The notes under the pieces are model-generated. The model was not told where the DNA came from. It ran no database searches and saw only the letters and a list, made by a program, of their open reading frames with translations. DNA of 64,000 nt from a virus, in the IMG/VR virus record IMGVR_UViG_3300036715_001865, positions 32,001-96,000 of that record; one strand, given 5' to 3'. Position 1 is the first letter of the stretch, and each line of letters starts with the position of its first letter. Made by a program: the position numbers and the translations under genes. Below are positions 1 to 49,915 of the stretch, one piece after another.

Positions 1-213
1 AGTCTTCCATTTTACCAGAATTGAACAAGATGGGGCAGAACAAATTGGTAAATTATCACCATGTATTATATGCCATAACCTTTGTTGCAATGAACTGTTT
101 GTTGGTAAAAAATTAGTCTGTTCGATAACCTGTTGCTTAATATGAGCATTGGTTTTTTTTAGATTTAATTCATTCCCATGTTGTTGCCATATTATTGCCT
201 CTTCCTTTGTCAC
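1..213 (-). CDS. Hef-like endonuclease family protein, N-terminal part (runs off the window edge)
   Basis: Not in the ORF track. GTG at 213 follows AGGAG. Reads MTKEEAIIWQQHGNELNLKKTNAHIKQQVIEQTNFLPTNSSLQQRLWHIIHGDNLPICSAPSCSILVKWKT, matching the 'TxFL...R(L/V)H.I...P.C..C' N-termini of 2272..3738 and 7320..8927. Confidence 0.75.
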   Translation of the reverse strand, partial: MTKEEAIIWQQHGNELNLKKTNAHIKQQVIEQTNFLPTNSSLQQRLWHIIHGDNLPICSAPSCSILVKWKT

Positions 214-214
214 A

Positions 215-268
215 AAAATAACTCCTAATTAAAGGAGTTATTTTAACACAAATACAACATATAATCAA
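215..268 (-). promoter_or_regulatory. sigma70-type promoter overlapping an SD-sequestering hairpin
   Basis: TTGATT(268-263)-N17-TAAAAT(245-240), preceded by TG. 12-bp perfect stem (215-226/233-244) whose mRNA 3' arm contains AGGAG. Confidence 0.75.
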
Positions 269-291
269 CAGATTATATTTTACCTGCCCCC
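261..291. repeat. Direct repeat, copy of the tail tube gene 3' end plus -35 box
   Basis: 28 of 31 bases identical to 1611..1641; offset 1350 bp. Confidence 0.8.
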
Positions 292-363
292 AAGCTCTAT
301 TTGCCACATCTGGATTAAAATCCTGTAATGTTTGTATCACTGTGGGTGATATACCTAAATGGT

Positions 364-1527
364 CTAATATCCAATTTGCTCCTTGGTCCACGCTATCTCC
401 AATAGATGAAGGTAATGCCCCACAAAATCTGATTCCCACATAACAACCAGATTATAACCTAGTGATTTTATTAGGTTTTCTCTTTCGATAGTTTTTTGGT
501 ATAGCTCGCCCATTGATTTTCCATTCACTTCATTAATTTCATTTGGTGGATAAATTATTGGATTTCCGTGCCAATAATCACCATGAAACTCATAGATTGT
601 ATTTGTTTCTTCACAGTACCCATCAGCTCTATATCTAGTAGATGGTATTTTCCACTCAGATATTATCTCATAATCTTGTTGAGTTAGCCAGAGTTGGCAC
701 TTATATGAACTCCAAAAATATTGTCTAATTTCAATTTCGTAATGTCGTAAGTGTGAAAGTATAGTTCCATATGTAATAACATCTAATTCACTGGCAATTT
801 GAGTAGCAGTTTTGTTTTGTGTAATGTATTGATCAAATAACCAATTATAATCCTCTATTAATGGGAGAATATCCACCATATGTTGTTGACTAGCATGTTT
901 AACACCATATTTCAATATATTATTATTTGCCCTTTTATTTTTAATTTCTTGTGTTTGTGATGCTCTTATTACCCCATATTTTTTCATATGAGTGGAGGTT
1001 ATAGCATCCTGTACTTGCTTTGTTTGTACTGGAAATACTGTACCATACTTTATCATACAAGTATTATTTCTTTTTTGTCTAACAATAGGGCTTTGTGATG
1101 AATGATGTACACCATATTTCTTTAGATTAGTAGCTACTGTGTTTACTTTCCCACTAGCTGATTGGGCAGCATATTCTACACCATACCTCTCTATCATTGT
1201 TTGTTTTTGTTTTTGTTGTATCAGATCAGAAGACATAGGATTTTTTGTCCCATATCTAATTAAATTGGTAGCAGCTGCTTTGTCTTTTAATTGTGCTGAT
1301 TGCATTGGATTTTCAACACCATACCTCTTTACCATTGTTTGTTTTTGTTTTGCTTGTTGAGATAACTTATCTTGCTTTGCACAACTAGCACTACAATATG
1401 TATTAAATTGTCCCCCAGTAGCCACATTTCTCCATTTTACCTCAGTAGGACACATTTTACACAACACAGGATATGTCTTATGGTGTTTATCTAACCAACC
1501 TTGTTGAATATCAGATATCTTTTTCAT
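364..1527 (-). CDS. Free-standing PD-(D/E)XK (Vsr-like) endonuclease, Hef-like, without GNAT module
   Basis: CxxC/YCSxxC zinc motif, tandem 'KQTMxxRYGVxxxxQ' repeats, an HTH-like segment and RADGYCEETNTIYEFHGDYWHG...LVVMWESD. ATG at 1527 chosen; the ORF track starts at TTG 1539. Confidence 0.75.
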   Translation of the reverse strand: MKKISDIQQGWLDKHHKTYPVLCKMCPTEVKWRNVATGGQFNTYCSASCAKQDKLSQQAKQKQTMVKRYGVENPMQSAQLKDKAAATNLIRYGTKNPMSSDLIQQKQKQTMIERYGVEYAAQSASGKVNTVATNLKKYGVHHSSQSPIVRQKRNNTCMIKYGTVFPVQTKQVQDAITSTHMKKYGVIRASQTQEIKNKRANNNILKYGVKHASQQHMVDILPLIEDYNWLFDQYITQNKTATQIASELDVITYGTILSHLRHYEIEIRQYFWSSYKCQLWLTQQDYEIISEWKIPSTRYRADGYCEETNTIYEFHGDYWHGNPIIYPPNEINEVNGKSMGELYQKTIERENLIKSLGYNLVVMWESDFVGHYLHLLEIAWTKEQIGY

Positions 1528-1562
1528 AGTCCCAACCAACTGCTAATTTGTGTACCCTAGAC

Positions 1563-1618
1563 ATAATAAACTCCTATTGAAAGGAGTTTATTATAAACCA
1601 CATAAGTAAAATAATCAA
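1563..1618 (-). promoter_or_regulatory. sigma70-type promoter overlapping an SD-sequestering hairpin
   Basis: TTGATT(1618-1613)-N17-TATAAT(1595-1590). 13-bp perfect stem 1563-1575/1582-1594 containing AGGAG. Confidence 0.8.
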
Positions 1619-1641
1619 CTGATTAAATTTTACCTGCACCC
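1611..1641. repeat. Direct repeat (tail tube 3' end, stop codon and -35 box)
   Basis: Partner of 261..291. Confidence 0.8.
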
Positions 1642-2210
1642 CCTGTAGCAATCCCCGGACCCTGTGAATATCCTCCAAGTACTTGTCTTGCATGGTCAAA
1701 ACTGATTACAACAGCTAGTTCAACTGGATCACCTGTTTCATATGCCAACTCTGCATAATCAATACTTTCAATCCAACAACCTTCAATTGTCCATTTTTCA
1801 ATCACTTGATCATTACCATCTAACATATCTAAGTAACTAACAAACTTATATAATGAACCTTCCCCAGCAGCCGCGAGCCATTGACCTTCAGCCCCAATTA
1901 ACCACTGTTGTTTTTGTTCCTGTGCTTGTAATACTCGAGATGCAGTTCCAGTAACATCATCTTGAATCGTAAGGTTCATTGGTTCCCACGAATGTTTACC
2001 AGCAATATATGAAATTGAGTTATAACGATGCAATGTTATTTTCTCATGTTTTAATTGTGGTCTACTAACCTTTGTTGTTTGCATAGATATTGGCTGACTA
2101 TCTGTTCCACCACCCATGTTCGCAAAGGTGATTCTCCATCTATTTTTGTGTTTTGGGTGTAGGATACCTGTTCCAACACCTGGAATCCCTATATCATTAA
2201 TTGTTGACAT
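1623..2210 (-). CDS. gp19: Tail tube protein
   Basis: 'KHKNRWRITF', 'YIAGKHSWEPMNLTIQDD', 'WTIEGCW...L.Y......ELAVVISFD' match the T4 gp19-type tube; downstream of the sheath gene; has a late promoter. Confidence 0.9.
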   Translation of the reverse strand: MSTINDIGIPGVGTGILHPKHKNRWRITFANMGGGTDSQPISMQTTKVSRPQLKHEKITLHRYNSISYIAGKHSWEPMNLTIQDDVTGTASRVLQAQEQKQQWLIGAEGQWLAAAGEGSLYKFVSYLDMLDGNDQVIEKWTIEGCWIESIDYAELAYETGDPVELAVVISFDHARQVLGGYSQGPGIATGGAGKI

Positions 2211-2237
2211 GAATTATATCTCCTAATTTGTTTATTA

Positions 2238-2245
2238 TATTTATA
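2238..2245 (-). promoter_or_regulatory. T4-type late promoter TATAAATA (tail tube)
   Basis: Exact consensus 28 nt upstream of the start codon. Confidence 0.85.
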
Positions 2246-2271
2246 CAAACGAGGGTATTATAATACAAAAA

Positions 2272-3738
2272 TCACATTAACACATATTTAATCTTGCCAC
2301 AGTCCCATATCCGCAAAACTCCATTTAAGTCACAATTAACTTTTTCACTCAACTGCTCGTCATATTTTTTTAATAATTTTGATAGGTACTTTCGACGATA
2401 GTTAAATTTGTGTACCCGATTGTGTCCATCTGGGGAATAATAATAATCAGGAGGTAGAGTACTTACAGAAATAAACCCAGTGGCTTGGTATAACTCTCCT
2501 GAACTCCACCTCAAATCCGCAAATGTTACGATCTGGGACGGAGCATAATTGGTTTTGAAATATGATAATAACTTAGTAAACCCACCTACAATCAATGAAG
2601 ATGTGGCATATCTATTTAACACAAATGCTCCACCCTGTTGTTGTATAAACGACATACAAGATACCAACTCATTGTCATATGTTAGTCCTATATTAATGGA
2701 ACTAGGACCGTCCCCTTGTATGTGGTGGGCAGTAAGAAAGGATTGCTTAACATCTGGAGATACTGTTTGGATAATACACTTTCTGCCATATAACCGAGGT
2801 CGATTATCACAGTTTAATAAAATATTTAATTTTTCTTTTATTATAGGTTGTTTTTGTTTCCACTCATCTTCGTATATTGTCAACAATCTAATACCCAACT
2901 GTTCACACATTTTGTGTTTGGTGCTGTGATAATGTTTATGTTTACCTTGTTGTTCACTGTGCCAATACAACCCACAATACTCAATTGCTAAATTATACTC
3001 TGGTATGAATATATCAAGCTCATATGGAGGTATGATAGTACGAACATTGACATCAAACGAAATAGACAATCCACGTAAATAATCACCTATTTGTTTTTCG
3101 CCAGTAGATACGAAAAAATGCTTTGTATCATATCCTAGTTTATGCAAGTTTCGTTGAACTGTATTAACATCAACTTCTAGCTCTGTAGCGATATCACTCA
3201 ATGTTCTTTTATTGACATGGTGTTGTTCTTGTAACCACGTAGGGTCTATTAATTTGGAATAACTGGTAGGTATTATGTGTTTTTGATTTTTGTGTATTCT
3301 ACCATACCGTTGGATATTTGTGCTTTGTTGTTTATTTTTAACTTCAACAGTTTGTTGTGGAATAGTAGTACCATACCGTTGGACATTTGTATTATTGCGC
3401 TTGATGATCCGATTAGGATTATCAATCCCACATTTATACGAACAGGTATCAGAATACCCAACATTTTTTCCTGTTGTATTAAACTTAACTAGACTATGAC
3501 ACACTACACACAGTTTTGGGGAGATTATATGGTTTTTAATACAATGAACCCTCTCCCTAAGAGACGATTTTAAATCATCTGTTATGAAGTCGGTGCGGGT
3601 CATTATATATGAAGTTGCAACAGGGTTTAATTTCAACACCCCAAATGATTTTTTTGATAATTTATAATCACTATCTAGTATACCACAATCTACTAGGTGG
3701 GTCAGAATTTCACTATCAGTTTTAAATTCATCAGACAC
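2272..3738 (-). CDS. Hef-like endonuclease with C-terminal GNAT/Mom-like module
   Basis: Zn motif and RYG repeats; ELDIFIPEYNLAIEYCGLYWHS nuclease motif; HIQG...LNRY...GGFTKL...TFADLRW...GF...IWDCG module. Confidence 0.8.
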   Translation of the reverse strand: MSDEFKTDSEILTHLVDCGILDSDYKLSKKSFGVLKLNPVATSYIMTRTDFITDDLKSSLRERVHCIKNHIISPKLCVVCHSLVKFNTTGKNVGYSDTCSYKCGIDNPNRIIKRNNTNVQRYGTTIPQQTVEVKNKQQSTNIQRYGRIHKNQKHIIPTSYSKLIDPTWLQEQHHVNKRTLSDIATELEVDVNTVQRNLHKLGYDTKHFFVSTGEKQIGDYLRGLSISFDVNVRTIIPPYELDIFIPEYNLAIEYCGLYWHSEQQGKHKHYHSTKHKMCEQLGIRLLTIYEDEWKQKQPIIKEKLNILLNCDNRPRLYGRKCIIQTVSPDVKQSFLTAHHIQGDGPSSINIGLTYDNELVSCMSFIQQQGGAFVLNRYATSSLIVGGFTKLLSYFKTNYAPSQIVTFADLRWSSGELYQATGFISVSTLPPDYYYSPDGHNRVHKFNYRRKYLSKLLKKYDEQLSEKVNCDLNGVLRIWDCGKIKYVLM

Positions 3739-3799
3739 AAAAAACTCCTATTTTTATTAATATTATATAGGAGTTTTTTGTTTTTTACAACATTACTTA
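3725..3799. repeat. 75-bp direct repeat carrying promoter, hairpin, SD and first codons
   Basis: 3725-3792 is identical to 5318-5385 (68 bp), followed by one mismatch and 6 more identities. Confidence 0.95.
3738..3790 (-). promoter_or_regulatory. sigma70 promoter within a terminator-like, SD-sequestering hairpin
   Basis: TTGTAA(3790-3785)-N17-TATAAT(3767-3762). 14-bp stem CAAAAAACTCCTAT/ATAGGAGTTTTTTG; the U6 tract is the SD-to-GTG spacer. Confidence 0.8.
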
Positions 3800-5331
3800 G
3801 TCAATACCCATCTCTGTAGACCACAATTATATATTTGGTGTATGTTGTTATTGTGGGTATTGGTTACTTCACTTAGGTTGGGGTCATAAGTTTTTAATAG
3901 ATTAGGTAAGTTCTTGTGTCTATAATTAAATTTATGAACCCGACACTCGCCTATAACATATTGGTAATCAGGAGGAGTAATTTTATCTAACACAAACCCA
4001 TTTGTACCATATATTGTTCCAACACTCCATCTCAGATCAGCAAAACTTATAATAGTAGCCCACTCATTATTATTTTTAAAATGCGACAATAATTTACTAA
4101 ACCCACCTCGCACCTGTCCAATGGTAGCATACCTATTCAATACAAAGTTGCCTTCACCTTTATTAATAAAGGTCATCATCGCTACAAAATTGCCACCATA
4201 GGTAAGTCCATATGTTGTGGACCCTGGACCATCTCCTTGTATATGATAGGAATCAAAAAATTCTGATTTTGTTTTCTTGTTTGGTACTGTGATTACACAC
4301 GACCGCCCATTAATTTTTACACCTTCACTATATCCAAGTATAGTTCTGATGGTATTTTTAACCAGGTGTGAATTATTCAACCACTCATCCGAGAATATAG
4401 TGATTAATCTAATTCCAATATCTGCACACCTATTATATTTCATTTGGTGATAATTGGATGTTTTGTATTCAGAGGAGTGCCAATATAATCCACAATATTC
4501 TATGGCTATGTTTTTATCAGGGATGTAAATATCTAGTTCATATGGTTTAATTAATGACCTATTTTTAACTTCAAAAATTACACCAATTTCTGTTAGAAAC
4601 CGTTCAATATCAACTTGTTGCTGTGAAGATGATTGGTGCCAATACTGTACTTCTATTCCATGTTTTATTAATCTACTAGAGACTACTTTATGGGAGTTTT
4701 TCCAATGTAATCCCAATTCAACACACATAGATGCAACTGTCCGTTGATTAGTTATGTGTTGTTCATACAACCAATCAACGCTATTGAGTTTATTAATGGC
4801 TTCCTCAGATAAAACAGATAATAGCTTGACTGTGCTGGACGGTATCCACCCATTATCAATCTTTCGTCCTATGGTTATTTTTCTAATTTGTTTACTATGT
4901 TCACTATATTGTCTATGTTGAGACAGTGCAGTTAATTGAATTTTTTGACGAGTATCAGTTGATGTTGTGTTGCCGTTGTTCCAATGGGTAATTTGTCCAG
5001 TTGAGAATCGTTCTTTTCTGGTATTGGACAATTGAATGTTTTGTTCAACTGTTCTTGGGATGCCTTTGTTCCAAGCTTGGGTAGGATTATCTAATTTTGT
5101 TTGTTTTATCTTTTCAACCACCTCTAATGATCTTGGTACTCCTTTTCTACTTGAATTTGATCTAATGGCTGCTTCTCGTTTTCTATTGGTTGCATTTGTG
5201 GACTTTAAAACAGCAGTGGGATACAACAGTTTATACTCTGGTAACGTGGTGCTATGTTTTGAAAGATGTTTCCATGTAATGGTAGACATTTCTGCACCAC
5301 ATATCAAACATTTAATTAATTCATCAGACAC
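3793..5331 (-). CDS. Hef-like endonuclease with C-terminal GNAT/Mom-like module
   Basis: N-terminal CxxC..H..H zinc finger and NUMOD3-like 'AWNKG' repeats; ELDIYIPDKNIAIEYCGLYWHS; HIQG...SFADLRW...NCG module. Confidence 0.8.
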   Translation of the reverse strand: MSDELIKCLICGAEMSTITWKHLSKHSTTLPEYKLLYPTAVLKSTNATNRKREAAIRSNSSRKGVPRSLEVVEKIKQTKLDNPTQAWNKGIPRTVEQNIQLSNTRKERFSTGQITHWNNGNTTSTDTRQKIQLTALSQHRQYSEHSKQIRKITIGRKIDNGWIPSSTVKLLSVLSEEAINKLNSVDWLYEQHITNQRTVASMCVELGLHWKNSHKVVSSRLIKHGIEVQYWHQSSSQQQVDIERFLTEIGVIFEVKNRSLIKPYELDIYIPDKNIAIEYCGLYWHSSEYKTSNYHQMKYNRCADIGIRLITIFSDEWLNNSHLVKNTIRTILGYSEGVKINGRSCVITVPNKKTKSEFFDSYHIQGDGPGSTTYGLTYGGNFVAMMTFINKGEGNFVLNRYATIGQVRGGFSKLLSHFKNNNEWATIISFADLRWSVGTIYGTNGFVLDKITPPDYQYVIGECRVHKFNYRHKNLPNLLKTYDPNLSEVTNTHNNNIHQIYNCGLQRWVLTK

Positions 5332-5392
5332 AAAAAACTCCTATTTTTATTAATATTATATAGGAGTTTTTTGTTTTTTACAACACTACTTA
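5318..5392. repeat. 75-bp direct repeat (second copy), directly behind the sheath stop codon
   Basis: Partner of 3725..3799; contains the same promoter, hairpin and GTG TCT GAT GAA TT start. Confidence 0.95.
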
Positions 5393-5394
5393 AG

Positions 5395-7128
5395 TTATGC
5401 TGTCAAGGACGCACCGGTTGCAACAATTCGGATTGGAATATATATAAATTCCGCGGCCCTTACAGGTTTCAATGCGACATCGAGATACATTTCATTTCTA
5501 TCAATGCGATCAGGTGTATTATTAGAGGAATCACAGACTGTAGCGAAATCATATAGACCACGTTTAACAATCAAATCACCCAAAAATGAATCAACAGCAG
5601 CTTTTAGGTTATCTCTGGTTAGTTGATCATTTGGTTCAAACACAAACGGCATTGTGTTTTTGCGTAATGAACGTTTGATATATTGAACCAAACGTACCAC
5701 ATTGATACGATCCATTGCTGAAGCATCCGGAGCAGAAGTTTTTTGTCCCCATACAATAATACCTCTTCCTGGGAAGAACACAATAGGATTAATATTGGTA
5801 AAGTATTTGTATAAGTTATCTCTTTGTCCTAAATTCAAAGCAACTGGGTTGAATGTAGTTGGTGTTCCTAGAGTACCAGATACATATCCAACTTCAGATA
5901 TACTTGATACTTGTCCACGTCTAGTTCCAGCTGGTGCAAACCACATTTCTGACACTTCATCACTGTATATGATTGTGCGTAATGCAGTACCAGATGCTGA
6001 AACGAATACATTTGCTCCATCTAAATTTGATGCTAATCCGTGTGGATAATAATATGCCACATTTCGGTTAGATCTTCGTTCAACAGTAGCAGCCCAAGTT
6101 ACAACATCTTCTGGAGTTTTGGTAAATGGAGTATCAGCAATAACAAATGCTTCTTCTTGTATATCAATTACCAAATTGATTAATTCATCCACAACTTCAG
6201 GGAAACCAGGACATACAACAATGTTATATTCGTATGCTTCTGATCTTATATCAGTGTTGCTGTTAATAGATGCTTGTAAGGCTGTAACAACAGCAACTCT
6301 ACGTGCAGCATCATTTGAACCAAGGCTAGTTTCGTTGGCAAATTGATTAGTATACTTAAATTCATCAGCACCACCCAATAAAGCGTTACCAGCTTCTTGT
6401 GGAGTCCATTCAGTAGTTACAATTCCACCTAAGTTATTGTTAACCCAGTCAGTTGCAATTCCAGCTAATCCAAGAAATACACCAGTTGCAGCATTAGTAC
6501 AACCATTAGCATACACTAAATATGGAGAGGACGCATGGTCATCCATGAAACTAATACGACTGTGTGCAAATGAGAACATGCTCCAAATAGGTTGTGTTGC
6601 TGCTGCTGCAAGTGATAAGAATTTGGTACGATTGATAGTGGTTTTGTAAGTTGGGTCTGATGGAACATATCCATTTGATAAATTAAATTCATTCAAATAT
6701 GCATTTGCTAAATTTTCCAGAACATACGAAGCTTCTTGGATTTTAGTATCCCACATCATTTGAATATCAGCAACATTATCGTTCAAGTTTACATTTGCAC
6801 GAATAACATATGCTCTGCTACAAATACCTAAACACTGATTCAATGCAAACAAACCGTATTCATTTCGGGTATCCCCATGTAGTGGTCTACCACTAGTATC
6901 TGTTAAGAATTTAGGAATACCATACAATTCAGTACTTTGTCTTAAACTGGTAAGAGTTCGGATCACATTAGATTCATATGTGCCTGCCGCCCCAGATATA
7001 CCATCTGGTTTAGTTTTTTCATCAGCTGTTGCTATGAAAATTAATGGGACAGTTTTAGCTGATGCTGGAATGAAAAAGGATTCATCTGTCACAGTAACTG
7101 ATACCCCTGGGCTAATTAAATTTGCCAT
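5395..7128 (-). CDS. gp18: Contractile tail sheath protein
   Basis: 'LISPGVSVTVTDES' N-terminus; 'WFAPAGTRRG', 'WGQKT', 'DRINVVRL', 'FVFEPND..TR', 'KPVRAAEFIYI' sheath motifs. Confidence 0.95.
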   Translation of the reverse strand: MANLISPGVSVTVTDESFFIPASAKTVPLIFIATADEKTKPDGISGAAGTYESNVIRTLTSLRQSTELYGIPKFLTDTSGRPLHGDTRNEYGLFALNQCLGICSRAYVIRANVNLNDNVADIQMMWDTKIQEASYVLENLANAYLNEFNLSNGYVPSDPTYKTTINRTKFLSLAAAATQPIWSMFSFAHSRISFMDDHASSPYLVYANGCTNAATGVFLGLAGIATDWVNNNLGGIVTTEWTPQEAGNALLGGADEFKYTNQFANETSLGSNDAARRVAVVTALQASINSNTDIRSEAYEYNIVVCPGFPEVVDELINLVIDIQEEAFVIADTPFTKTPEDVVTWAATVERRSNRNVAYYYPHGLASNLDGANVFVSASGTALRTIIYSDEVSEMWFAPAGTRRGQVSSISEVGYVSGTLGTPTTFNPVALNLGQRDNLYKYFTNINPIVFFPGRGIIVWGQKTSAPDASAMDRINVVRLVQYIKRSLRKNTMPFVFEPNDQLTRDNLKAAVDSFLGDLIVKRGLYDFATVCDSSNNTPDRIDRNEMYLDVALKPVRAAEFIYIPIRIVATGASLTA

Positions 7129-7215
7129 GTTGTTTCTCCTTGGGAAAATTATATTAATTATATTTCACACATTTCATCCCGCAGATAATGCAAGAACTTT
7201 ATTGTGTTACATATA

Positions 7216-7223
7216 TATTTATC
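7216..7223 (-). promoter_or_regulatory. Probable late promoter variant GATAAATA (sheath)
   Basis: One mismatch to TATAAATA; the only candidate upstream of the sheath start. Confidence 0.55.
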
Positions 7224-7239
7224 AAAAAGTACTTTTTTG

Positions 7240-7268
7240 TTGGCTTTTGATCTAATAGCATATATAAT
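7240..7268 (+). promoter_or_regulatory. sigma70-type promoter of the reverse-oriented endonuclease
   Basis: TTGGCT(7240-7245)-N17-TATAAT(7263-7268). Confidence 0.65.
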
Positions 7269-7319
7269 AAGAGTAATCAGTAATCATAACTTCAACCAGA
7301 TAAGGAATCATCAGTAATC

Positions 7320-8927
7320 ATGAATGAGCTTGAAACAGAATTGCACAAATTAAACATATTCACCCACAATGGAACTATTAATAAACAAGCGTCCAGATTA
7401 TTAACCAACAATCCTGAGACATTATATAAATTAATAGAAGCAACAAAATTTCTAGAAAACCACCCCTCTAATCGAGCCAGATTACATGCTTTGAGAACGG
7501 GACTATTATCACAACCCAAGTGTGCAACATGCTCAACAGCCACTACATTTAATAATGCGACTGGACAGTTTAATAAATTTTGTCCAAATACTGGTGGGAA
7601 ATCTTGTACAAACAGTAACACAGACTCCATTCTTAAAAAAAATACCACTATGGTTAAAAAGTATGGAGTTACCAATGCTGCACACAGTGAGGAGTTACAA
7701 ACCAAACGGAACAATACTATGGTGGCTAGGTATGGCTGTACAACACCTATACAAAATGCTGACATTAAACAAAAAATAAAAGATACCATGATGGCTAGAT
7801 ATGGAACGATGCATATTGCTCATATTCCACAATCTGCCACGAAACGAAAGGAAACTAACATCCGCAAATTTGGAGCTGCTACATATGCTCAATCATTGGT
7901 GCCCACTGAAGCTATAGACCTATTATCAAACATAGATTGGTTGTCAGACAATTTAAAAGATTTTACGGTGGCAGAAGTTGCGATAGCAGCAAACACGTCT
8001 GTATTTACGGTTAGAAAATGGATTTATCATCACAATCTACAACACTTGTTGGTATCAACTGGCTCATCTGATCAACGAGAGTTGGCAAGATTCCTAGATA
8101 CACTGGATTTAGAATATACAACCAATGATAAGCAACTAATTGCTCCAAAGGAAGTGGATTTTTATATACCATCCAAGCAATTAGCTGTGGAATATAATGG
8201 AATTTTTTACCACTCACAGTTATCAAAACGAGATAAAAATTACCACATAAACAAAACAACTAGTTGCAACAATAATGGGGTTAGATTAATTCAAATATGG
8301 TCAAATGAATGGAAAAACAAGAAAGACATTGTACAATCCAGAATATTACATGCTGTCGGAATGTCTACTCGAATATATGCTCGGAAGTGTAATATAATTG
8401 TATTACCAACAGCAAACGAACAACAATTTTTTGACGATAACCACATACAGGGAGCAGTACGATCAACTATTTGTTTTGGATTGGAATTGGATGGTAAAGT
8501 GGTAGCATGTATGAGTTTTATAAAATCCAGATTTTCCCCAACTCATGAATGGGAACTATTAAGATATAGTGGCATTAAAAACCATACAATATTAGGTGGC
8601 GCAAGCAAATTGTTTAAACATTTTGTAAAAACACATAATCCAACATCTATAGTGTCCTACTGCGACCTACGTTGGGGAACTGGGACATTATATTCCCAAT
8701 TAGGTTTTACATATTCACACACAAGTGCACCTAATTATTTTTATTTTGTCAGAAATGGGGATACTAATAAGTTATTCACAAGGGTCAATTTCCAAAAGCA
8801 CAAACTAGCTAATAAACTAACCACATTTACCCCAGAACATACAGAATGGGAAAACATGGTTAATAATGGTTATGATAGAATTTGGGATTGTGGGAACAAG
8901 GTATTTACTTGGAATAATGGCGGATAG
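7320..8927 (+). CDS. Hef-like endonuclease with GNAT/Mom-like module, antisense to the structural operon
   Basis: Zn motif and KYG repeats; EVDFYIPSKQLAVEYNGIFYHS; NHIQG...WELLRY...GGASKL...SYCDLRW...IWDCG. Confidence 0.8.
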   Translation: MNELETELHKLNIFTHNGTINKQASRLLTNNPETLYKLIEATKFLENHPSNRARLHALRTGLLSQPKCATCSTATTFNNATGQFNKFCPNTGGKSCTNSNTDSILKKNTTMVKKYGVTNAAHSEELQTKRNNTMVARYGCTTPIQNADIKQKIKDTMMARYGTMHIAHIPQSATKRKETNIRKFGAATYAQSLVPTEAIDLLSNIDWLSDNLKDFTVAEVAIAANTSVFTVRKWIYHHNLQHLLVSTGSSDQRELARFLDTLDLEYTTNDKQLIAPKEVDFYIPSKQLAVEYNGIFYHSQLSKRDKNYHINKTTSCNNNGVRLIQIWSNEWKNKKDIVQSRILHAVGMSTRIYARKCNIIVLPTANEQQFFDDNHIQGAVRSTICFGLELDGKVVACMSFIKSRFSPTHEWELLRYSGIKNHTILGGASKLFKHFVKTHNPTSIVSYCDLRWGTGTLYSQLGFTYSHTSAPNYFYFVRNGDTNKLFTRVNFQKHKLANKLTTFTPEHTEWENMVNNGYDRIWDCGNKVFTWNNGG

Positions 8928-8930
8928 CCA

Positions 8931-9698
8931 TTATTCCCAAGGTAGATCAGCAGCATCATCTATTTTCTCATATTGCAAATTTTGAGAATCTAATTCACTA
9001 ATAATATCAAATGGCATTTCAGTAGAAGTGTTTATGATTCCTATTCTTGCATATATTCTTTCTACAAAATCACGGCGGACTTCTGCTGGGGTATCTAATT
9101 CAATAGGCATTTCAAATGTAAGCCTACTTTGTATGATTCTTTTATCTGTGCCTATTGGAAAGTTTGTTTCTAATTGAACATCTTTTAATTCCACATGAGT
9201 CAATCTTGTCCAATCAAATATTGCGTCACTTGTTTGGATATTAAGTGATGGGTCAAATAATGGAAGAATTTGTTCCATTATTTGTAAGTGTTGTTGTGTA
9301 TTACTTGCAAATATATTGAGTTCAATTGTTAAGTTGTATGGGACAGGCATACGTTGGTGAATAACCCTCATATCATCTGGAACCAACCCACCAACAGGAG
9401 TATACGTCTGTCTACGTTCAGTACCAACACCACGAGCTCGTTGCATAGTTAAAGTTAGACCACTCATATATGCACTCATAATAGGTAATCGTAAAGGTTT
9501 GTTGTGGGTGTTTTCAGTTTTTAAGGCTGCTACAACCTTGTCCATGTGTCCATAATGAATCCCAACAGGTATCAATGCAGCTTCTCTATCATTCCATTTT
9601 CCGACCTGTACCTGCAACCCACCAAATATGGCCATAAATTGATTTATATACCTAGCCAACTGTCCATTGTAGTAGTAGCCATCTTTTTGCATTGCCAT
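8931..9698 (-). CDS. gp15: Tail sheath stabiliser / tail terminator
   Basis: 'YYYNGQL..Y...F..IF', 'PVPYNLTIELNIFASN....LQIMEQILPLFDPS' match T4 gp15; position between neck and sheath genes. Confidence 0.8.
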   Translation of the reverse strand: MAMQKDGYYYNGQLARYINQFMAIFGGLQVQVGKWNDREAALIPVGIHYGHMDKVVAALKTENTHNKPLRLPIMSAYMSGLTLTMQRARGVGTERRQTYTPVGGLVPDDMRVIHQRMPVPYNLTIELNIFASNTQQHLQIMEQILPLFDPSLNIQTSDAIFDWTRLTHVELKDVQLETNFPIGTDKRIIQSRLTFEMPIELDTPAEVRRDFVERIYARIGIINTSTEMPFDIISELDSQNLQYEKIDDAADLPWE

Positions 9699-9725: not shown

Positions 9726-9733
9726 TATTTATA
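9726..9733 (-). promoter_or_regulatory. Late promoter TATAAATA (gp15-like gene)
   Basis: Exact consensus upstream of the start codon. Confidence 0.85.
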
Positions 9734-11290: not shown

Positions 11291-11602
11291 TTAATCTCCA
11301 GATTCCATTTTCTTTAGTTTTATATAATATTTAGGATCTTCAGTTAAGTGATCTTTTGCAATTAATTTTGCAATTAATTTTGATTTAGTATGTTCGAGTT
11401 CAACACTAATACCTAATTTTAATTGGGTAGTGTCAAATTCAGAATCTGGAACAAAATCGTGGTTTCCGATATTAGATATAATATCTTCAACTGAATCCTC
11501 TCCAATTTCATCGAGTTCTTTGCTAGTTACATTTAGCAACTTAGCTAGTTGTTGAATTTTATCGTTTTCAACGATAAAATGTTTGAATGTTTGATGTAAC
11601 AC
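11291..11602 (-). CDS. Small late protein with DUF5661-like C-terminus; possible internal head protein
   Basis: 'QLKLGISVELEHT...IAKDHLTEDPKYYIKLKKME'; N-terminus 'TFKHFIVE'. Confidence 0.6.
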   Translation of the reverse strand: MLHQTFKHFIVENDKIQQLAKLLNVTSKELDEIGEDSVEDIISNIGNHDFVPDSEFDTTQLKLGISVELEHTKSKLIAKLIAKDHLTEDPKYYIKLKKMESGD

Positions 11603-11604
11603 AA

Positions 11605-11641
11605 AAATACCCCCAAAGAGTTGTCTTTGGGGGTATTTATA
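11605..11641 (-). terminator. Terminator of the 825-aa gene that overlaps the next gene's late promoter and SD
   Basis: 15-bp stem (11605-11619/11624-11638) followed by a U-run; TATAAATA at 11641-11634. Confidence 0.75.
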
Positions 11642-19122: not shown

Positions 19123-20772
19123 TCAGGATGAGCACATACTAAATTTTAATGTTCCACAATCCCACACTCTATAAAAACCATGATTAACCATGTTTTGATA
19201 CTCAGTTAATGTGGCGTCATAATTTGGTAGGGTATTTTTAATAATATCTTTTCTATAGTTCCATCTATGTTTCCGCTGCCCGTTTACCACATAAAAATAT
19301 GCTGGAGGATTAGTTGCTACTAAATTGAACCCCAGTTGGTAATACATATTACCAACGCTCCACCGTATGTCAGCAAAACTATATATTTCTTTCCAACTGT
19401 GATTTCTCTTAAAATGGGTCAATAATTTAGATGCTATCCCCGGAATACGGTAGTCAACATCTGTACAAAATCTACTTAATTCCCATATCCCTTCTTTTGA
19501 TTTTGTTTTATCTTTTTGTCCCAAAGCTACTCTAGGTGAAGTCCATGTCATGACAGATATTAATTTATCGTTATAATATGCTCCGTAACACAACTGAGAA
19601 TTATCATTCCCCTGAACGTGGTTGGCATTCAATAACGATTTTTTTTCTTCAGGTGTACAATATTTAATGACACAATTACGAGCATGTATTTTTTCAGCAC
19701 TTCCTGTAAATGTGTAATGTTTTAATTTTGCGGTCAATAAATCAACATTTTCCATTTCGTCCTCAAACAATACAATAAAAGGTGTAGCAGATTCTTTAAA
19801 TGCTTTATATATAGCCAACCCACTTTTTAAATTCGCATACGATTTGTCCAATGGCAGTACTATAATAGCTCTATTTGAAGCTTCATCATACACTGTCACA
19901 ATAATATCAGCAATTTTTATAAAAGGTTTGCTATTAGGAAATATACCCATCAATGTTTTAGCGTACTGTTCCAATTTTGTATTAGTTGAAATAAACTGAA
20001 AAAACAACGGAGGGATAGTTCCTTTAATATGATTTCGAGAGCCAACATTTTCCAACCATCCAATCATTTGAAGATTAGAATCGTCAGCACACATCTCAGG
20101 TGGGATATTATTATCAAAACAAAACCGTTTAGGTACAATATGGTCTAAATGATACGCTCCATCTACACCTGCTTTCCCTCGTTTTAAATTAAGGGGATTA
20201 ATCTTTTTCTTATGCTTTTTATATACTTGTTCCGTCAAAGCTGTTACAGTAGCCTTATATTGTTGCCATTCTGTAGCAGTTTCTTTCCATTTAGCTGAAT
20301 TTGCCTTTGACCAAGCTGTTAATGGAGCAACTCTTTTCAATGGTCCACACACTCCACATTCTACTTCCATTTCTAATAAATTAGTTGGAGTACAATGAAA
20401 TTCGTGGCCACAATGGATATTTTTAACTAACAATTTAGAGTAAGTGTTTTCGTTTAATAAATGCCTACGACCATCATAATTTGGTGTTAGTATTATTATT
20501 CCTCTTTCTAATAATTTTTTCAAATTTAAATCCCTAGAAATAGAATATTTCTGGTCTCTTTTGTTAGTATTACAGGTAGGACATCCAGATACTCCATATT
20601 TTTTATATGTTTGTCTTTTGGATAAAGGAGTAGCAGTCCATATATGATTACAGGTCATACATTGCATTTTGTGGTGTTTTTTAGTTCCAATAAATGGTTC
20701 TAAAAGTTTAATGTGGTTTTCAGTTTCTAACAATAATGGATAATTATTATTAAATTCTCCTTCTTTTGGCAT
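19123..20772 (-). CDS. HNH endonuclease fused to a degenerate PD-(D/E)XK domain and a GNAT/Mom-like module
   Basis: Two CxxC ribbons; YHLDHIVP...NLQMI...EN..S.N HNH motif; NHVQG...WELSRF...SFADIRW...VWDCG. Confidence 0.8.
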   Translation of the reverse strand: MPKEGEFNNNYPLLLETENHIKLLEPFIGTKKHHKMQCMTCNHIWTATPLSKRQTYKKYGVSGCPTCNTNKRDQKYSISRDLNLKKLLERGIIILTPNYDGRRHLLNENTYSKLLVKNIHCGHEFHCTPTNLLEMEVECGVCGPLKRVAPLTAWSKANSAKWKETATEWQQYKATVTALTEQVYKKHKKKINPLNLKRGKAGVDGAYHLDHIVPKRFCFDNNIPPEMCADDSNLQMIGWLENVGSRNHIKGTIPPLFFQFISTNTKLEQYAKTLMGIFPNSKPFIKIADIIVTVYDEASNRAIIVLPLDKSYANLKSGLAIYKAFKESATPFIVLFEDEMENVDLLTAKLKHYTFTGSAEKIHARNCVIKYCTPEEKKSLLNANHVQGNDNSQLCYGAYYNDKLISVMTWTSPRVALGQKDKTKSKEGIWELSRFCTDVDYRIPGIASKLLTHFKRNHSWKEIYSFADIRWSVGNMYYQLGFNLVATNPPAYFYVVNGQRKHRWNYRKDIIKNTLPNYDATLTEYQNMVNHGFYRVWDCGTLKFSMCSS

Positions 20773-20798
20773 AATATTTTCTCCTGGGGTTTACTGAT

Positions 20799-20827
20799 AT
20801 TATACCTTATTTATGATTATATTTCAA
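20799..20827 (-). promoter_or_regulatory. sigma70-type promoter
   Basis: TTGAAA(20827-20822)-N17-TATAAT(20804-20799). Confidence 0.8.
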
Positions 20828-20863
20828 CTCCTTACTAGTCGTTGGAGTTTCCTAGGAGATGAT

Positions 20864-37410: not shown

Positions 37411-37995
37411 TTATTTTAGGATAGGTTGATACTCTTCAACCTCTATTTCATCCAATTCTTCTAACTCTTCTAATTCTTCTATGACACTAATGTCAAATTC
37501 ATCAACAAAAGAATCTTGTTGTAACTGTTGTTGTAATTCAATAGCAGTTTCTCTGTAGTGGTAATAATCTTGTTCATCTTCTACAAAATGTTGATCAGAA
37601 GCATCTTCAGTGAAACCAAATGAAGGATTCATTCCTTGTTTAACCAATAATAAATCTCTCACAATTCTTTGTCTTTTTTCTTTGTTGAGGTATTGAATAA
37701 ATGAATTTTTAATGCATTGGGTAAAAAAAGCAAATGGATTATTGCTCTTGTTTGGATCGAAACTGTTCCAAGTACGTACTAGCATCATCATGGCGTAGGC
37801 TTGCATGTCGGAATTGTAAGTATAGTTGACAAAGTTTCCTTTTGCAGCATATTTCGCGCATAACAATTGTATCATACGAGCCAGTTTATCATTCATTTTA
37901 CCTTGAGCTTTTGATTCCCCAATAGCTATTAATAGTTCTTTGTTGTTTAAATATTGGATTTTTGGTGGGAGACTTGGAGTGGGTTCAGTGGACAT
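37411..37995 (-). CDS. gp55: Late-transcription sigma factor
   Basis: 'YLNNKELL', 'NFVNYTY..DM', 'FDPNKSNNPFAFFTQCIKNSFIQYL.KEK'; gene order 55-47-46. Confidence 0.92.
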   Translation of the reverse strand: MSTEPTPSLPPKIQYLNNKELLIAIGESKAQGKMNDKLARMIQLLCAKYAAKGNFVNYTYNSDMQAYAMMMLVRTWNSFDPNKSNNPFAFFTQCIKNSFIQYLNKEKRQRIVRDLLLVKQGMNPSFGFTEDASDQHFVEDEQDYYHYRETAIELQQQLQQDSFVDEFDISVIEELEELEELDEIEVEEYQPILK

Positions 37996-44284: not shown

Positions 44285-45850
44285 TTACCTCTTCCAACTC
44301 CATATAACATTTCCACAGTCCCAAAATTTATTATAATTATTATTAACCATATTTTCCCACTCTGTGAGAGTGGGATCAAAGGTTTGTAATTTGGTAACTA
44401 GTTTGTGTTTCTGAAACTGTATCCTAGAAAACACTACCAATGGATTTGAATTTTTGAAATAATAATAATTTGGAGCGGTTACTCCTATTTTATCAAAACC
44501 TATGTACATATACCAATTAGCTTCTCCCCACCTGTAATCATTATAAGAAATAATGGATGTTGGTTGAACTTGCTGCAAAAAGTGTTTGAATAATTTACTT
44601 GCTCCTCCTATTACATTAATATCTACAGCCGAACAAAATCTTATTAATTCAAACTCATAAGCCTTGTTATATCTTGGCCTTCCAAATGTCATTATGGCTA
44701 CTAATTTATTATCATACTCTAGTCCAAATGAATATTTTGCCCCACAGTATCCTTGAGTGTGGTTATGTTCTAAAAATTCTATTGCATTAGCCCGGGGCAC
44801 TTGAACTAGTTTGCATTTTCTTGCTGGTATACTTATCGTTTGGTGTACCATTGATCTGATTCTAGATTTCACAATGTGTTTATTGAAATACCAATCATGT
44901 TCAAAAATATGTACTAATTTTATACCCAACATAGCACATCTATTTGTTTTGTTTATGTGGTATTGTTTATCGTGAAATCGGGCGGAGTGCCAAAAATTCC
45001 CATTAAATTCAAATGCTAAGTTTAACTCTGGAATATACACATCTAATTCCAATGGAGGAATTATGTTTCTACTTGATTGTATTATTTTACAATCAAGTTC
45101 CGACTGGAGAAAATGAACTAGTTCATTTTCTCCAGTCGATGTACCCCAACAAATTTCAATATTGTGTTTTTGTCGATATCTAGTTAAACAACTAGGTGAT
45201 ACCCCCAATTCTAAGGATATATCATACAGTGAACTAATTGCGCATTTATTAGACATCCAAATAGGGTCGTTTAGTTTTAATAAAGAATCTTCAGAAATAT
45301 GTTGCTGTTTAATATATTTAGCTCCATACTTATCTTGCATGGTACTCTCCCTATTGTGGGTACTAAATTCTCCTCTGGGTGGATACAACTGTCCATATTT
45401 TGTATATAGTGTAGATTGAACTGTTTCTTTCCACCCTGGTAGTTGGGTGTTGTGCTCGACCCCATATCGTGCTAACATAGTTTGTTTTTGTTTTTGTTTT
45501 CTGTTACTAATCAGTTCGTGGTTATTATCCCTAGCTTGAATACTTAATTTCCAACTATCTAATTGTGTGTTGTGAGACACTCCGTGATTTGCCATCAATG
45601 TTGCTTTCTGCTTCTCAGCAAATTTAGGTACCATTGCCGAATGGGGTGCACCATACCTAGTTACCATAGTAGCTTGTCTTGATTTCGCTATATCTGGGTC
45701 AGCATACATGCATGCTGTTGAACAATATGTTCCAAATTGTCCTTTAGTTGGTTGCCACCGAACATGATTATCACATTGTTTGCATTTTATAGGAAGAGTT
45801 TTGTTGTGAATAGATAGCCACTCTTGTTGCTTCTTGGTTATTTTTTGCAT
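44285..45850 (-). CDS. Hef-like endonuclease with GNAT/Mom-like module, antisense within the baseplate cluster
   Basis: Zn motif and RYG repeats; ELDVYIPELNLAFEFNGNFWHS; NHTQG...FELIRF...GGASKL...SYNDYRW...FWDCG. Confidence 0.8.
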   Translation of the reverse strand: MQKITKKQQEWLSIHNKTLPIKCKQCDNHVRWQPTKGQFGTYCSTACMYADPDIAKSRQATMVTRYGAPHSAMVPKFAEKQKATLMANHGVSHNTQLDSWKLSIQARDNNHELISNRKQKQKQTMLARYGVEHNTQLPGWKETVQSTLYTKYGQLYPPRGEFSTHNRESTMQDKYGAKYIKQQHISEDSLLKLNDPIWMSNKCAISSLYDISLELGVSPSCLTRYRQKHNIEICWGTSTGENELVHFLQSELDCKIIQSSRNIIPPLELDVYIPELNLAFEFNGNFWHSARFHDKQYHINKTNRCAMLGIKLVHIFEHDWYFNKHIVKSRIRSMVHQTISIPARKCKLVQVPRANAIEFLEHNHTQGYCGAKYSFGLEYDNKLVAIMTFGRPRYNKAYEFELIRFCSAVDINVIGGASKLFKHFLQQVQPTSIISYNDYRWGEANWYMYIGFDKIGVTAPNYYYFKNSNPLVVFSRIQFQKHKLVTKLQTFDPTLTEWENMVNNNYNKFWDCGNVIWSWKR

Positions 45851-45882
45851 GGGGGATAATTATTAGTAATAAGTATAAATAT

Positions 45883-45911
45883 ATTATACTGTATAAGATG
45901 GAAGAAATCAA
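45883..45911 (-). promoter_or_regulatory. sigma70-type promoter of the antisense endonuclease
   Basis: TTGATT(45911-45906)-N17-TATAAT(45888-45883). Confidence 0.7.
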
Positions 45912-49862: not shown

Positions 49863-49915
49863 CATAGGTAACCCTCTTATAAATATTAAAATGATATAAG
49901 AGGAACTTACCTGTG
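49863..49915 (+). promoter_or_regulatory. Late promoter inside a hairpin that sequesters the SD and GTG start
   Basis: CATAGGTAA/TTACCTGTG and CCTCTTATA/TATAAGAGG stems; TATAAATA at 49878-49885. Confidence 0.75.

Follow-up and report, generated by a model that had tools for sequence, protein, structure and literature searches.

The window, a 64,000-nt stretch from the record of an uncultured giant phage (190 kb, ~54% complete, at least 12 selfish nuclease genes), includes a tail operon that harbors four homing endonuclease genes, A to D (Table 1). These genes and their leaders all lie on the minus strand, where they were read directly. The four products group with the Hef-like/HNH families phrog_3339 and phrog_559 by sequence similarity (A through its 43-46% identity to the C and D proteins), with predicted roles in cleavage and homing, and matching proteins in PA5oct, AR9 and others carry Hef-like annotations. 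Genes B and A are placed between the tube stop codon and the strong terminator of the operon. Because close relatives have the sheath gene, the tube gene and the next gene without endonuclease genes, the four genes are insertions; in HEG-free relatives the sheath and tube genes are 25-30 nt apart, with no late promoter between them. A Megablast search of positions 1-7200 against cultured phages gave no match. Genes A, C and D keep intact long frames. The starts at 213, 1527, 3738 and 5331 given in the preliminary description stand, but its alternative start for gene B, the SD-proximal ATG at 1564, is out of frame with the endonuclease; it begins an upstream ORF of 17 codons (1564-1511) overlapping ATG 1527, and for this reason gene B may be decaying.

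Table 1. Features of the window and their positions
Feature	Position	Strand	Details
Homing endonuclease gene A, 5' part	1..213	-	G000:C1:30657-32213, 518 aa; extends past window start
Leader A	215..268	-	-35 TTGATT 268-263; TGn-extended -10 TAAAAT 245-240; GTG 213
Leader A stem	5' arm 244-233, 3' arm 226-215 (carries SD)	-	12 bp
Homing endonuclease gene B	364..1527	-	phrog_3339/559 family, E 7e-28
Leader B	1563..1618	-	-35 TTGATT 1618-1613; -10 TATAAT 1595-1590; ATG 1564
Leader B stem	5' arm 1594-1582, 3' arm 1575-1563	-	13 bp plus one G-U pair
Tail tube gene	1623..2210	-	phrog_4542, E 9e-42; 62-82% identical to tube genes of closer relatives
Late promoter TATAAATA	2238..2245	-	between endonuclease gene C and tube gene
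Homing endonuclease gene C	2272..3738	-	488 aa, phrog_3339, E 5e-107
Leader C	3725..3799	-	-35 TTGTAA 3790-3785; -10 TATAAT 3767-3762, mostly in loop; GTG 3738
Leader C stem	3781-3767 with 3751-3737	-	15 bp
Homing endonuclease gene D	3793..5331	-	512 aa, phrog_3339, E 5.5e-93
Leader D	5318..5392	-	-35 TTGTAA 5383-5378; -10 TATAAT 5360-5355; GTG 5331
Leader D stem	5374-5360 with 5344-5330	-	15 bp
Tail sheath gene	5395..7128	-	stop codon 13 nt from leader D -35
Endonuclease paralogue antisense to late genes	7240..8927 (gene 7320-8927)	+	sigma70-type promoter 7240-7268, score 15.2, no hairpin
Non-endonuclease gene	11291..11641	-	103 aa; TATAAATA (11641-11634) overlaps 5' arm of 15-bp SD-hiding stem
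Endonuclease paralogue after major head gene	19123..20830	-	G+C-rich terminator, then sigma70-type promoter, score 18.6
T4 gp55 late sigma factor homologue	37411..37995	-	E 1e-11, 30% identical to T4 gp55; phrog_234, E 9e-29
Endonuclease paralogue, divergent junction	44285..45911	-	sigma70-type promoter 45911-45883, score 23.9, no hairpin

Each leader combines a -35/-10 pair, with the 17-nt spacer reported earlier at all four sites, and a stem that carries the AGGAG SD in its 3' arm; the stems are perfect, as described earlier, but instead of 12-14 bp they measure 12, 13 (plus the G-U pair), 15 and 15 bp. All four sites are present as described, but they make up only two independent leader families, because leaders C and D are copies of a 75-nt direct repeat (74/75 identical) flanking gene D and leaders A and B are related, with ~60 nt in common that include the last codons of the upstream gene. 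The layout recurs, with unrelated stems, at the paralogues G000:C1:99241-100359 and 120581-121663. The SD coincides exactly with the 3' arm in each of the six leaders, and this arm is located downstream of the predicted transcription start; in several it covers the start codon too, and in leader B it spans the SD and the AU of AUG. Placed 7 nt past the -10, the predicted start falls where the preliminary description had put it, at the end of the 5' arm in A and B and in the loop in C, D and the copy at G000:C1:100359, and at the nrdB-side copy it leaves 4 nt of the arm; leaders born at these promoters would be short, ~17-20 nt. Hairpins of the type AACTCCT...AGGAGTT number four in the window, where none is expected, and four in the whole 190-kb record. 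An Rfam search of positions 1-7400 with E up to 1 returned no match.

The exact coincidence of 3' arm and SD, with the start codon included in several leaders, argues against an account in which the leaders are linkers of the PeSL type that stop or attenuate upstream transcription and supply homology for shuffling, the SD lying in the 3' arm only by virtue of a short intergenic space. Known PeSL cassettes do terminate transcription and recombine (PMC2839356, PMC4122927), and the repeats around gene D and the stretch common to leaders A and B are in keeping with such linkers, as are the TATAAATA copies newly present downstream of genes C and A (the latter ahead of the gene that follows A), which are expected for polar inserts. 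The nrdB-side copy, a 15-bp stem followed by U7, fits the intrinsic-terminator form together with leader A, and phage contigs often have terminator-like hairpins directly against the next start codon. However, no U-run follows the stem in leader B or in the copy at G000:C1:100359, and in C and D the Us are paired within the stem and the loop is 15 nt, so that these leaders would be poor terminators and the case for the U6 terminator once proposed for the 3738 and 5331 copies is weak. Since, in addition, the strong canonical terminator is retained solely after gene A, and in published PeSL cassettes the stem precedes the start site and does not include the SD, we consider the linker account unlikely.

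The embedded promoters were compared with the promoter classes of the phage. The late sequence TATAAATA has 41 copies, 30 of which are followed within 80 nt by a start on the same strand, in most cases that of a structural gene, and a gp55 homologue is encoded in the record (Table 1). The sigma70-type class (TTGAyw, 16-17 nt, TATAAT) has 39 copies scoring ≥16, versus 1 in a shuffled genome, and heads ligase, primase, DnaB, MazG-like, PurZ-like and PRPP-synthetase genes. On a matrix trained without any endonuclease site, the endonuclease leaders score 11.7-20.3, against a background for scores ≥12 of 6.75e-5 per nt, or roughly 2e-3 per 25-nt window. Leader B and the copy at G000:C1:100359 reach 19-20 (B, 20.3), in the top third of the class; leaders A (13.8), C and D and the nrdB-side copy score only 12-14. 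The class spacing is present at 9/9 endonuclease promoters. By these measures, the promoters predicted in the leaders are members of the phage's own sigma70-type class and not chance matches. Since the leader -10 elements depart from TATAAATA at 2-3 positions, we rejected their reading as late promoters; they have a class-typical -35 at 17 nt.

The moderate scores of four of the six leaders lend some weight to the view that the hairpins are permanent silencers of inserted, possibly decaying genes, with hexamers that are unused or not restricted to early expression and with no temporal switch. The out-of-frame start of gene B points the same way. Pfam searches for AsiA and MotA were blank in the ~54%-complete record but in control genomes too, and are uninformative. 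Permanent silencing nevertheless appears improbable in view of the high scores of leader B and the G000:C1:100359 copy, the class spacing throughout, the intact frames of A, C and D, and the presence of the same promoters at hairpin-free paralogues at divergent junctions (n = 2).

Folding predictions agree with the earlier statement that read-through RNA folds over the SD and promoter-born RNA does not. Read-through RNAs reach -17.5 to -28.3 kcal/mol (z -4 to -6.8; 0/200 shuffles as stable), while RNAs from 7 nt past the -10 reach 0 to -4.4 kcal/mol; the respective values are -19.8 (z -4.45) and -2.7 kcal/mol for leader A, -20.8 (z -3.96) and -0.5 kcal/mol for leader B, and -17.5 (z -5.7) and 0 kcal/mol for leader C. 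A generic comparison of SD accessibility in long versus short RNA, made across all promoters, was dropped as too noisy because longer RNAs always pair more; in its place we used the explicit criterion of a stem that extends across the start site and hides the SD. A perfect Watson-Crick palindrome folds as well on one strand as on the other, and as DNA too, and here the palindromes overlap the -10; they could in principle be DNA operators for autorepression, in the manner of I-TevI, which represses its own promoter (PMC2988022), or a source of antisense RNA. Either role is very improbable: the opposite strand has no promoter of either class at these sites, the arm sequences vary among paralogues with the SD in each, and the G-U pairs of leader B and the G000:C1:100359 copy suit the sense strand only.

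Start-spanning, SD-hiding stems are associated with endonuclease genes in the record, at 5/9 endonuclease promoters versus 3/47 others (Fisher p 0.0015, with B not counted and with C and D being duplicates). The stem is found at 6/7 co-directional endonuclease genes, the seventh having a separate terminator, and at 0/2 endonuclease genes at divergent junctions, where the promoters are of the sigma70 type; the paralogue after the major head gene is without a strong SD-hiding stem. One endonuclease copy with a leader sits downstream of nrdA/nrdB, a non-late operon.

Based on the anatomy, the promoter class, the folds, this gene context and the compensatory changes in positionally equivalent cassettes described below, we favor as the probable explanation that each endonuclease gene is a self-contained, insulated cassette whose leader distinguishes transcripts by their start point. 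RNA derived from upstream, either late sheath/tube mRNA or the RNA of the preceding endonuclease gene, would carry both hairpin arms, and the SD (in B, C and D the start codon too) would be locked in a 12-15-bp helix, leaving the gene untranslated; in leader A, C/D and the nrdB-side copy, the U-rich 3' side may attenuate transcription as well. RNA from the sigma70-type promoter within the palindrome would begin in the loop or where the 5' arm ends and, because it starts past the 5' arm, would form no helix and keep the SD free. The RNA of the gene's own promoter is thus probably the only one translated, and the enzyme would be produced from that promoter alone. Since the promoter class serves replication and nucleotide-metabolism genes, early synthesis and silence on abundant late RNA would be expected; in this explanation we infer the start sites, the timing and the block to translation.

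Related phages inform both the stem and the promoter. In the L018 and L115 cassettes, which lie after the tube gene, the hairpin is kept with three compensatory pair changes relative to leader A and with the SD present, and two compensatory pairs differ between L034 and L029; these changes were counted by eye, MAFFT having misplaced the paired indel of leader B. The stem covariation that the preliminary description named as a check is thereby found. Of the positionally equivalent cassettes, L115 and L013 embed a late promoter, and L018 probably does. At L045, L015-17 and L034/35/39 a sigma70-like promoter has its -10 in the hairpin loop or apex, and the gene behind each of these promoters is Hef-like and lies just past the late prohead-protease gene. 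Among 75 Hef-like loci in other phages, SD-hiding stems are not broadly enriched; ~17% (about 1/6) have a stem of ≥8 bp, so we limit the claim to this record and the examples named, and the layout is not universal for the family. A degenerate IMG/VR scan for the L018/L115-type hairpin returned generic terminator-like hairpins, with full pairing at the three free positions in 180/236; an endonuclease gene followed none of them, and the scan thus gave no further positionally equivalent cassettes.

Because of the nrd-side copy and the late promoters in equivalent cassettes, the hairpin is best read as a putative filter on transcript origin, not as a dedicated late-off switch. The early-on, late-off behavior first suggested is in line with the promoter class, the folds and the late setting, and is narrowed by those same two observations; it would follow as a consequence in this phage, not as a conserved purpose. 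Nothing supports the protection of progeny DNA offered as its motive. More tentatively, and at slightly less than even confidence, we suggest that the leader is conserved in the lineage as a sensor of transcript start while the embedded promoter can be swapped between temporal classes, late in relatives and early here, where endonuclease synthesis would be confined to the early phase.

Promoter-bypass hairpins that sequester the ribosome-binding site are described for I-TevI, I-TevII, I-TevIII, segB, Aeh1 mobE, T4 e, soc and 49 (PMC2988022, PMC3014915). As in the T-even phages, a hairpin on upstream-derived RNA is predicted to hold the SD and/or start codon here, a promoter inside the hairpin is predicted to give a shorter, translatable RNA that leaves out the 5' arm, and the device is typical of homing endonuclease genes. 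The difference lies in the wiring: in T-even phages a late or middle promoter sits inside the hairpin, and the long RNAs kept silent come from early or middle transcription, whereas here the hairpin holds a promoter of the sigma70 early class, neither late (TATAAATA) nor middle, and the long RNAs kept silent would be late structural and, once, nrd mRNA. The classical late-promoter version occurs in this record at non-endonuclease genes, and also in the L115 and L013 cassettes. Since every published T4 case relies on a middle or late promoter, and a review finds among T4 endonuclease-specific promoters "no occurrences of early promoters" (PMC2988022), the reversal of polarity relative to T4 noted earlier holds at the sequence level, and the idea that the control long known from T4 is reversed here, the same device with opposite wiring, is partly supported.

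PeSL cassettes, the promoter-early stem-loop cassettes of T4-type phages (Arbiol et al. 2010, PMC2839356; Comeau et al. 2014, PMC4122927), likewise combine an early sigma70-type promoter and a stem-loop in a short, transcriptionally insulated intergenic cassette whose 3' end bears the SD and start codon, in repeated copies that flank accessory genes, as the 75-nt repeats do gene D. Their stems lie upstream of, between or overlapping the promoter boxes with the SD outside, an arrangement seen in none of the six leaders, and they are terminators and recombination linkers of hyperplastic non-structural regions near ORFans; here, the stem straddles the start site with the SD as its 3' arm, and the genes are homing endonuclease genes in late structural operons. 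The T4/Aeh1 mobE insert is polar, with a separate promoter for the essential gene behind it (PMC2988022), to which the TATAAATA copies before the tube gene and before the gene after endonuclease gene A may be compared; mobE has its terminator within its coding region and needs upstream promoters (PMC2988022), whereas here each cassette has its own promoter.

In the standard account, based on T4, the genes gated by hairpins are late ones carried on RNA of early or middle origin, and no endonuclease-specific promoter is early. The reversed wiring predicted here, together with the differing promoter classes in the same hairpin elsewhere, points to a general principle in which the leader filters by transcript origin and the embedded promoter sets the timing. 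Such a principle would explain how so many selfish nuclease genes lie inside essential late operons. A selfish gene could occupy the late operons with the heaviest transcription, pay nothing in translation and retune its time of expression. The signature could be used by annotators to spot such cassettes, and the leader could serve as a compact natural part for insulated gene expression. Early-only endonuclease synthesis, if it occurs, would be a timing absent among the T4 endonuclease-specific promoters.

The window is bases 32001-96000 of one 190,391-base virus record (36% G+C, completeness estimated at ~54%). Its sheath protein shares ~48% identity with the sheath proteins of jumbo phages XacN1 and RsoM2USA, and 70% with those of several uncultured contigs. 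At least 12 endonuclease genes are present in the record, and the four considered here, A to D, lie with the sheath and tube genes on the minus strand (table). In ~20 related contigs the sheath gene, the tube gene and the next gene follow one another without endonuclease genes, with a sheath-tube gap of 25-30 nt; the four genes are therefore insertions. The tube gene of these relatives is followed by a terminator and then by the late promoter of the next gene. Here, B and A are placed between the tube stop codon and this conserved strong terminator, so that late tube RNA is expected to run through them, and a late promoter that the relatives lack separates C from the tube gene.

Coordinates of the endonuclease genes and their neighbors (positions in the window, or in the whole record where prefixed G000:C1)
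Feature	Position	Strand	Location	Remarks
Sheath gene	7128-5395	minus	first in transcription order	
Endonuclease D	5331-3793	minus	after sheath	Hef-like homing endonuclease families, E 5.5e-93
Endonuclease C	3738-2272	minus	after D	Hef-like homing endonuclease families, E 5e-107
Tube gene	2210-1623	minus	after C	
Endonuclease B	1527-364	minus	after tube	Hef-like homing endonuclease families, E 7e-28
Endonuclease A	from 213 past window start	minus	last	43-46% identical to C and D
Paralogue	7320-8927	plus	divergent junction	class promoter, no hairpin
Paralogue	44285-45850	minus	divergent junction	class promoter, no hairpin
Paralogue	G000:C1:99241-100359			class promoter score 19; -10 in loop of 12-bp stem covering SD and start codon
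Paralogue	G000:C1:120581-121663			15-bp stem, then U7

Generic sigma70-like matches are no commoner than in shuffled sequence (31 found, 46 expected), so hexamers alone prove nothing. Two promoter classes are nonetheless clear in the record. The late motif TATAAATA is present in 41 copies, 30 of which are followed within 80 nt by a same-strand start, in most cases that of a structural gene, and the gene at 37411-37995 codes for a homologue of gp55, the late sigma factor of T4. The sigma70-type class (TTGAyw, 16-17 nt, TATAAT and conserved flanks) numbers 39 copies scoring at least 16, versus one in the shuffled genome, and heads the ligase, primase, DnaB, MazG-like, PurZ-like and PRPP-synthetase genes and the DNA polymerase region; by analogy with T4, this would be the early class. 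Scored with a matrix built from 28 sites, none of them from an endonuclease gene, the promoters in the leaders (promoter plus SD-hiding hairpin) of A, B, C and D reach 13.8, 20.3, 12.2 and 11.7, respectively. Judged from these held-out scores against the background rate of scores of at least 12 in intergenic-like sequence (6.75e-5 per nt), a chance origin of the leader promoters is excluded. Reading the leader -10 regions as the late motif was rejected, as 2-3 positions differ.

Several other promoters of the record deserve mention. The sheath gene has no exact TATAAATA across its 190-nt upstream region (window 7129-7319), and an inserted antisense endonuclease gene (7320-8927) separates it from the sheath-stabiliser-like gene (8931-9698); because of this arrangement, the late promoter at 9733 is the probable origin of sheath RNA, which would then cross the insert antisense. 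At window 45874-45890, the minus-strand sigma70-type -10 of the endonuclease gene at 44285-45850 overlaps an exact TATAAATA on the opposite strand, which belongs to a divergent baseplate gene at 45898. A free-standing phrog_314 endonuclease gene lies between two pieces of nrdB (L093:1957-4515 in a section of this record, or G000:C1:117957-120515) and has an exact TATAAATA at G000:C1:119029, 40 nt upstream of its ATG; thus, one endonuclease gene of the record uses a late promoter. A late promoter also lies upstream of a single open frame of 3783 aa (window 49913-61264, plus strand). Strong sigma70-type promoters stand before a PurZ-like adenylosuccinate-synthetase homologue (phrog_1211, E 1e-53; L094:18579-19766, plus strand, or G000:C1:154579-155766) and a MazG-like pyrophosphatase (L094:2880-3461, minus strand, or G000:C1:138880-139461), a pair which hints that the phage DNA may swap adenine for 2-aminoadenine.

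Reading of the sequence bears out the four hexamer pairs, the 17-nt spacing and the inverted repeats of the preliminary description. The stems comprise 12 bp in A, 13 bp plus one G-U in B and 15 bp in C and D; AGGAG falls within every 3' arm, and the arms of B, C and D also take in part of the start codon. Hairpins of this type occur four times in the window (0 expected) and nowhere else in the record. For leader RNAs with the 5' arm, the fold energy is -17.5 to -20.8 kcal/mol (z -4.0 to -5.7), a stability reached by 0 of 200 shuffles; for those beginning at the predicted start, 7 nt beyond the -10, it is 0 to -2.7 kcal/mol. Leaders C and D form a 75-nt direct repeat (74/75 identical), while their proteins are only 43% identical; leaders A and B are likewise related. 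The two repeats (window 3725-3799 and 5318-5392) bracket gene D, the geometry from which the promoter-early stem-loop (PeSL) cassettes of T4-type phages reportedly excise as mini-circles.

Other details needed revision. The ATG at 1564, proposed as a start of gene B, is indeed SD-proximal but in a different reading frame from the endonuclease; a 17-codon upstream ORF (window 1511-1564, minus strand) begins there and overlaps ATG 1527, which could reflect translational coupling or a decaying gene with a swapped-in 5' module. The case for a U6 terminator in C and D is weakened, the U6 being paired inside the stem. The hairpins of A, C/D and the nrdB-side copy (120581) may still act in part by termination; leader B and the 100359 copy have no U-run behind the stem, and the canonical terminator is kept behind A only.

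The promoter-in-hairpin layout recurs, with unrelated stems, at two further Hef-like paralogues of the record (those prefixed in the table), and the 120581 copy lies downstream of nrdA/nrdB, not in a late operon. Start-site-spanning, SD-hiding stems accompany 5 of 9 endonuclease promoters versus 3 of 47 others (p 0.0015), a count that omits B, enters C and D separately although they are duplicates, and has the primase gene among the three others. A separate G+C-rich terminator accompanies the paralogue behind the major head gene. The classical T4 layout, TATAAATA overlapping the 5' arm of an SD-hiding stem, is found in the same record at a PAAR/lysozyme-like gene, two further genes and perhaps a pectate-lyase-like gene (one mismatch to the motif).

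Two contigs (L018 and L115) carry an endonuclease gene where A lies here. Its leader hairpin departs from that of A by three compensatory pair changes and zero disruptive ones, and it embeds a late promoter, which matches the motif exactly in L115 and at 7/8 positions in L018. In L013, the leader of a D-like gene after the sheath gene has an 11-bp SD-hiding stem, with an exact late motif where arm and loop meet. In more distant T4-like contigs, the late prohead-protease gene is directly followed by Hef-like genes whose sigma70-like promoters place the -10 in a hairpin loop or apex (further examples in L015-17, L034/35/39 and L029); the L045 leader has consensus hexamers, and two compensatory pairs separate L034 from L029. 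The junction 3' of this gp21-like gene is a recurrent Hef-like insertion site (L012, L015-17, L029, L030, L034, L035, L039, L045). Hairpins with A/T-rich outer arms and a GCCYC/GRGGC core are very common in phage contigs (IMG/VR pattern matches L144-L260), with 180/236 paired at all three free positions; several adjoin the next gene's ATG, where the 3' arm could serve as SD.

We propose that the hairpin would be a conserved element concealing the SD from any upstream-started transcript, and that the embedded promoter would set the expression time of the endonuclease gene. The start sites, timing, translational block and any termination at the leaders are all deduced from sequence. Because the embedded promoter is early-class in this phage, early expression and silence on late RNA would follow, as in the early-on/late-off switch first suggested; however, the nrd-side copy and the late-promoter cassettes of relatives speak against a dedicated late-off device and argue that the common role is insulation from upstream RNA.

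In their layout, the present leaders are a hybrid of T4 hairpin gating and PeSL cassettes. The hairpin-gated genes of T4 "are all late genes", on early or middle polycistronic RNA (PMC2988022), whereas here the promoter is early-class and the late RNA is predicted to be silent. PeSL cassettes likewise consist of early promoters and stem-loops, but in these the stem precedes the start site and excludes the SD, and the cassettes are reported from non-structural regions (PMC2839356, PMC4122927); here, the 3' arm holds the SD, and leaders A-D lie amid tail genes.
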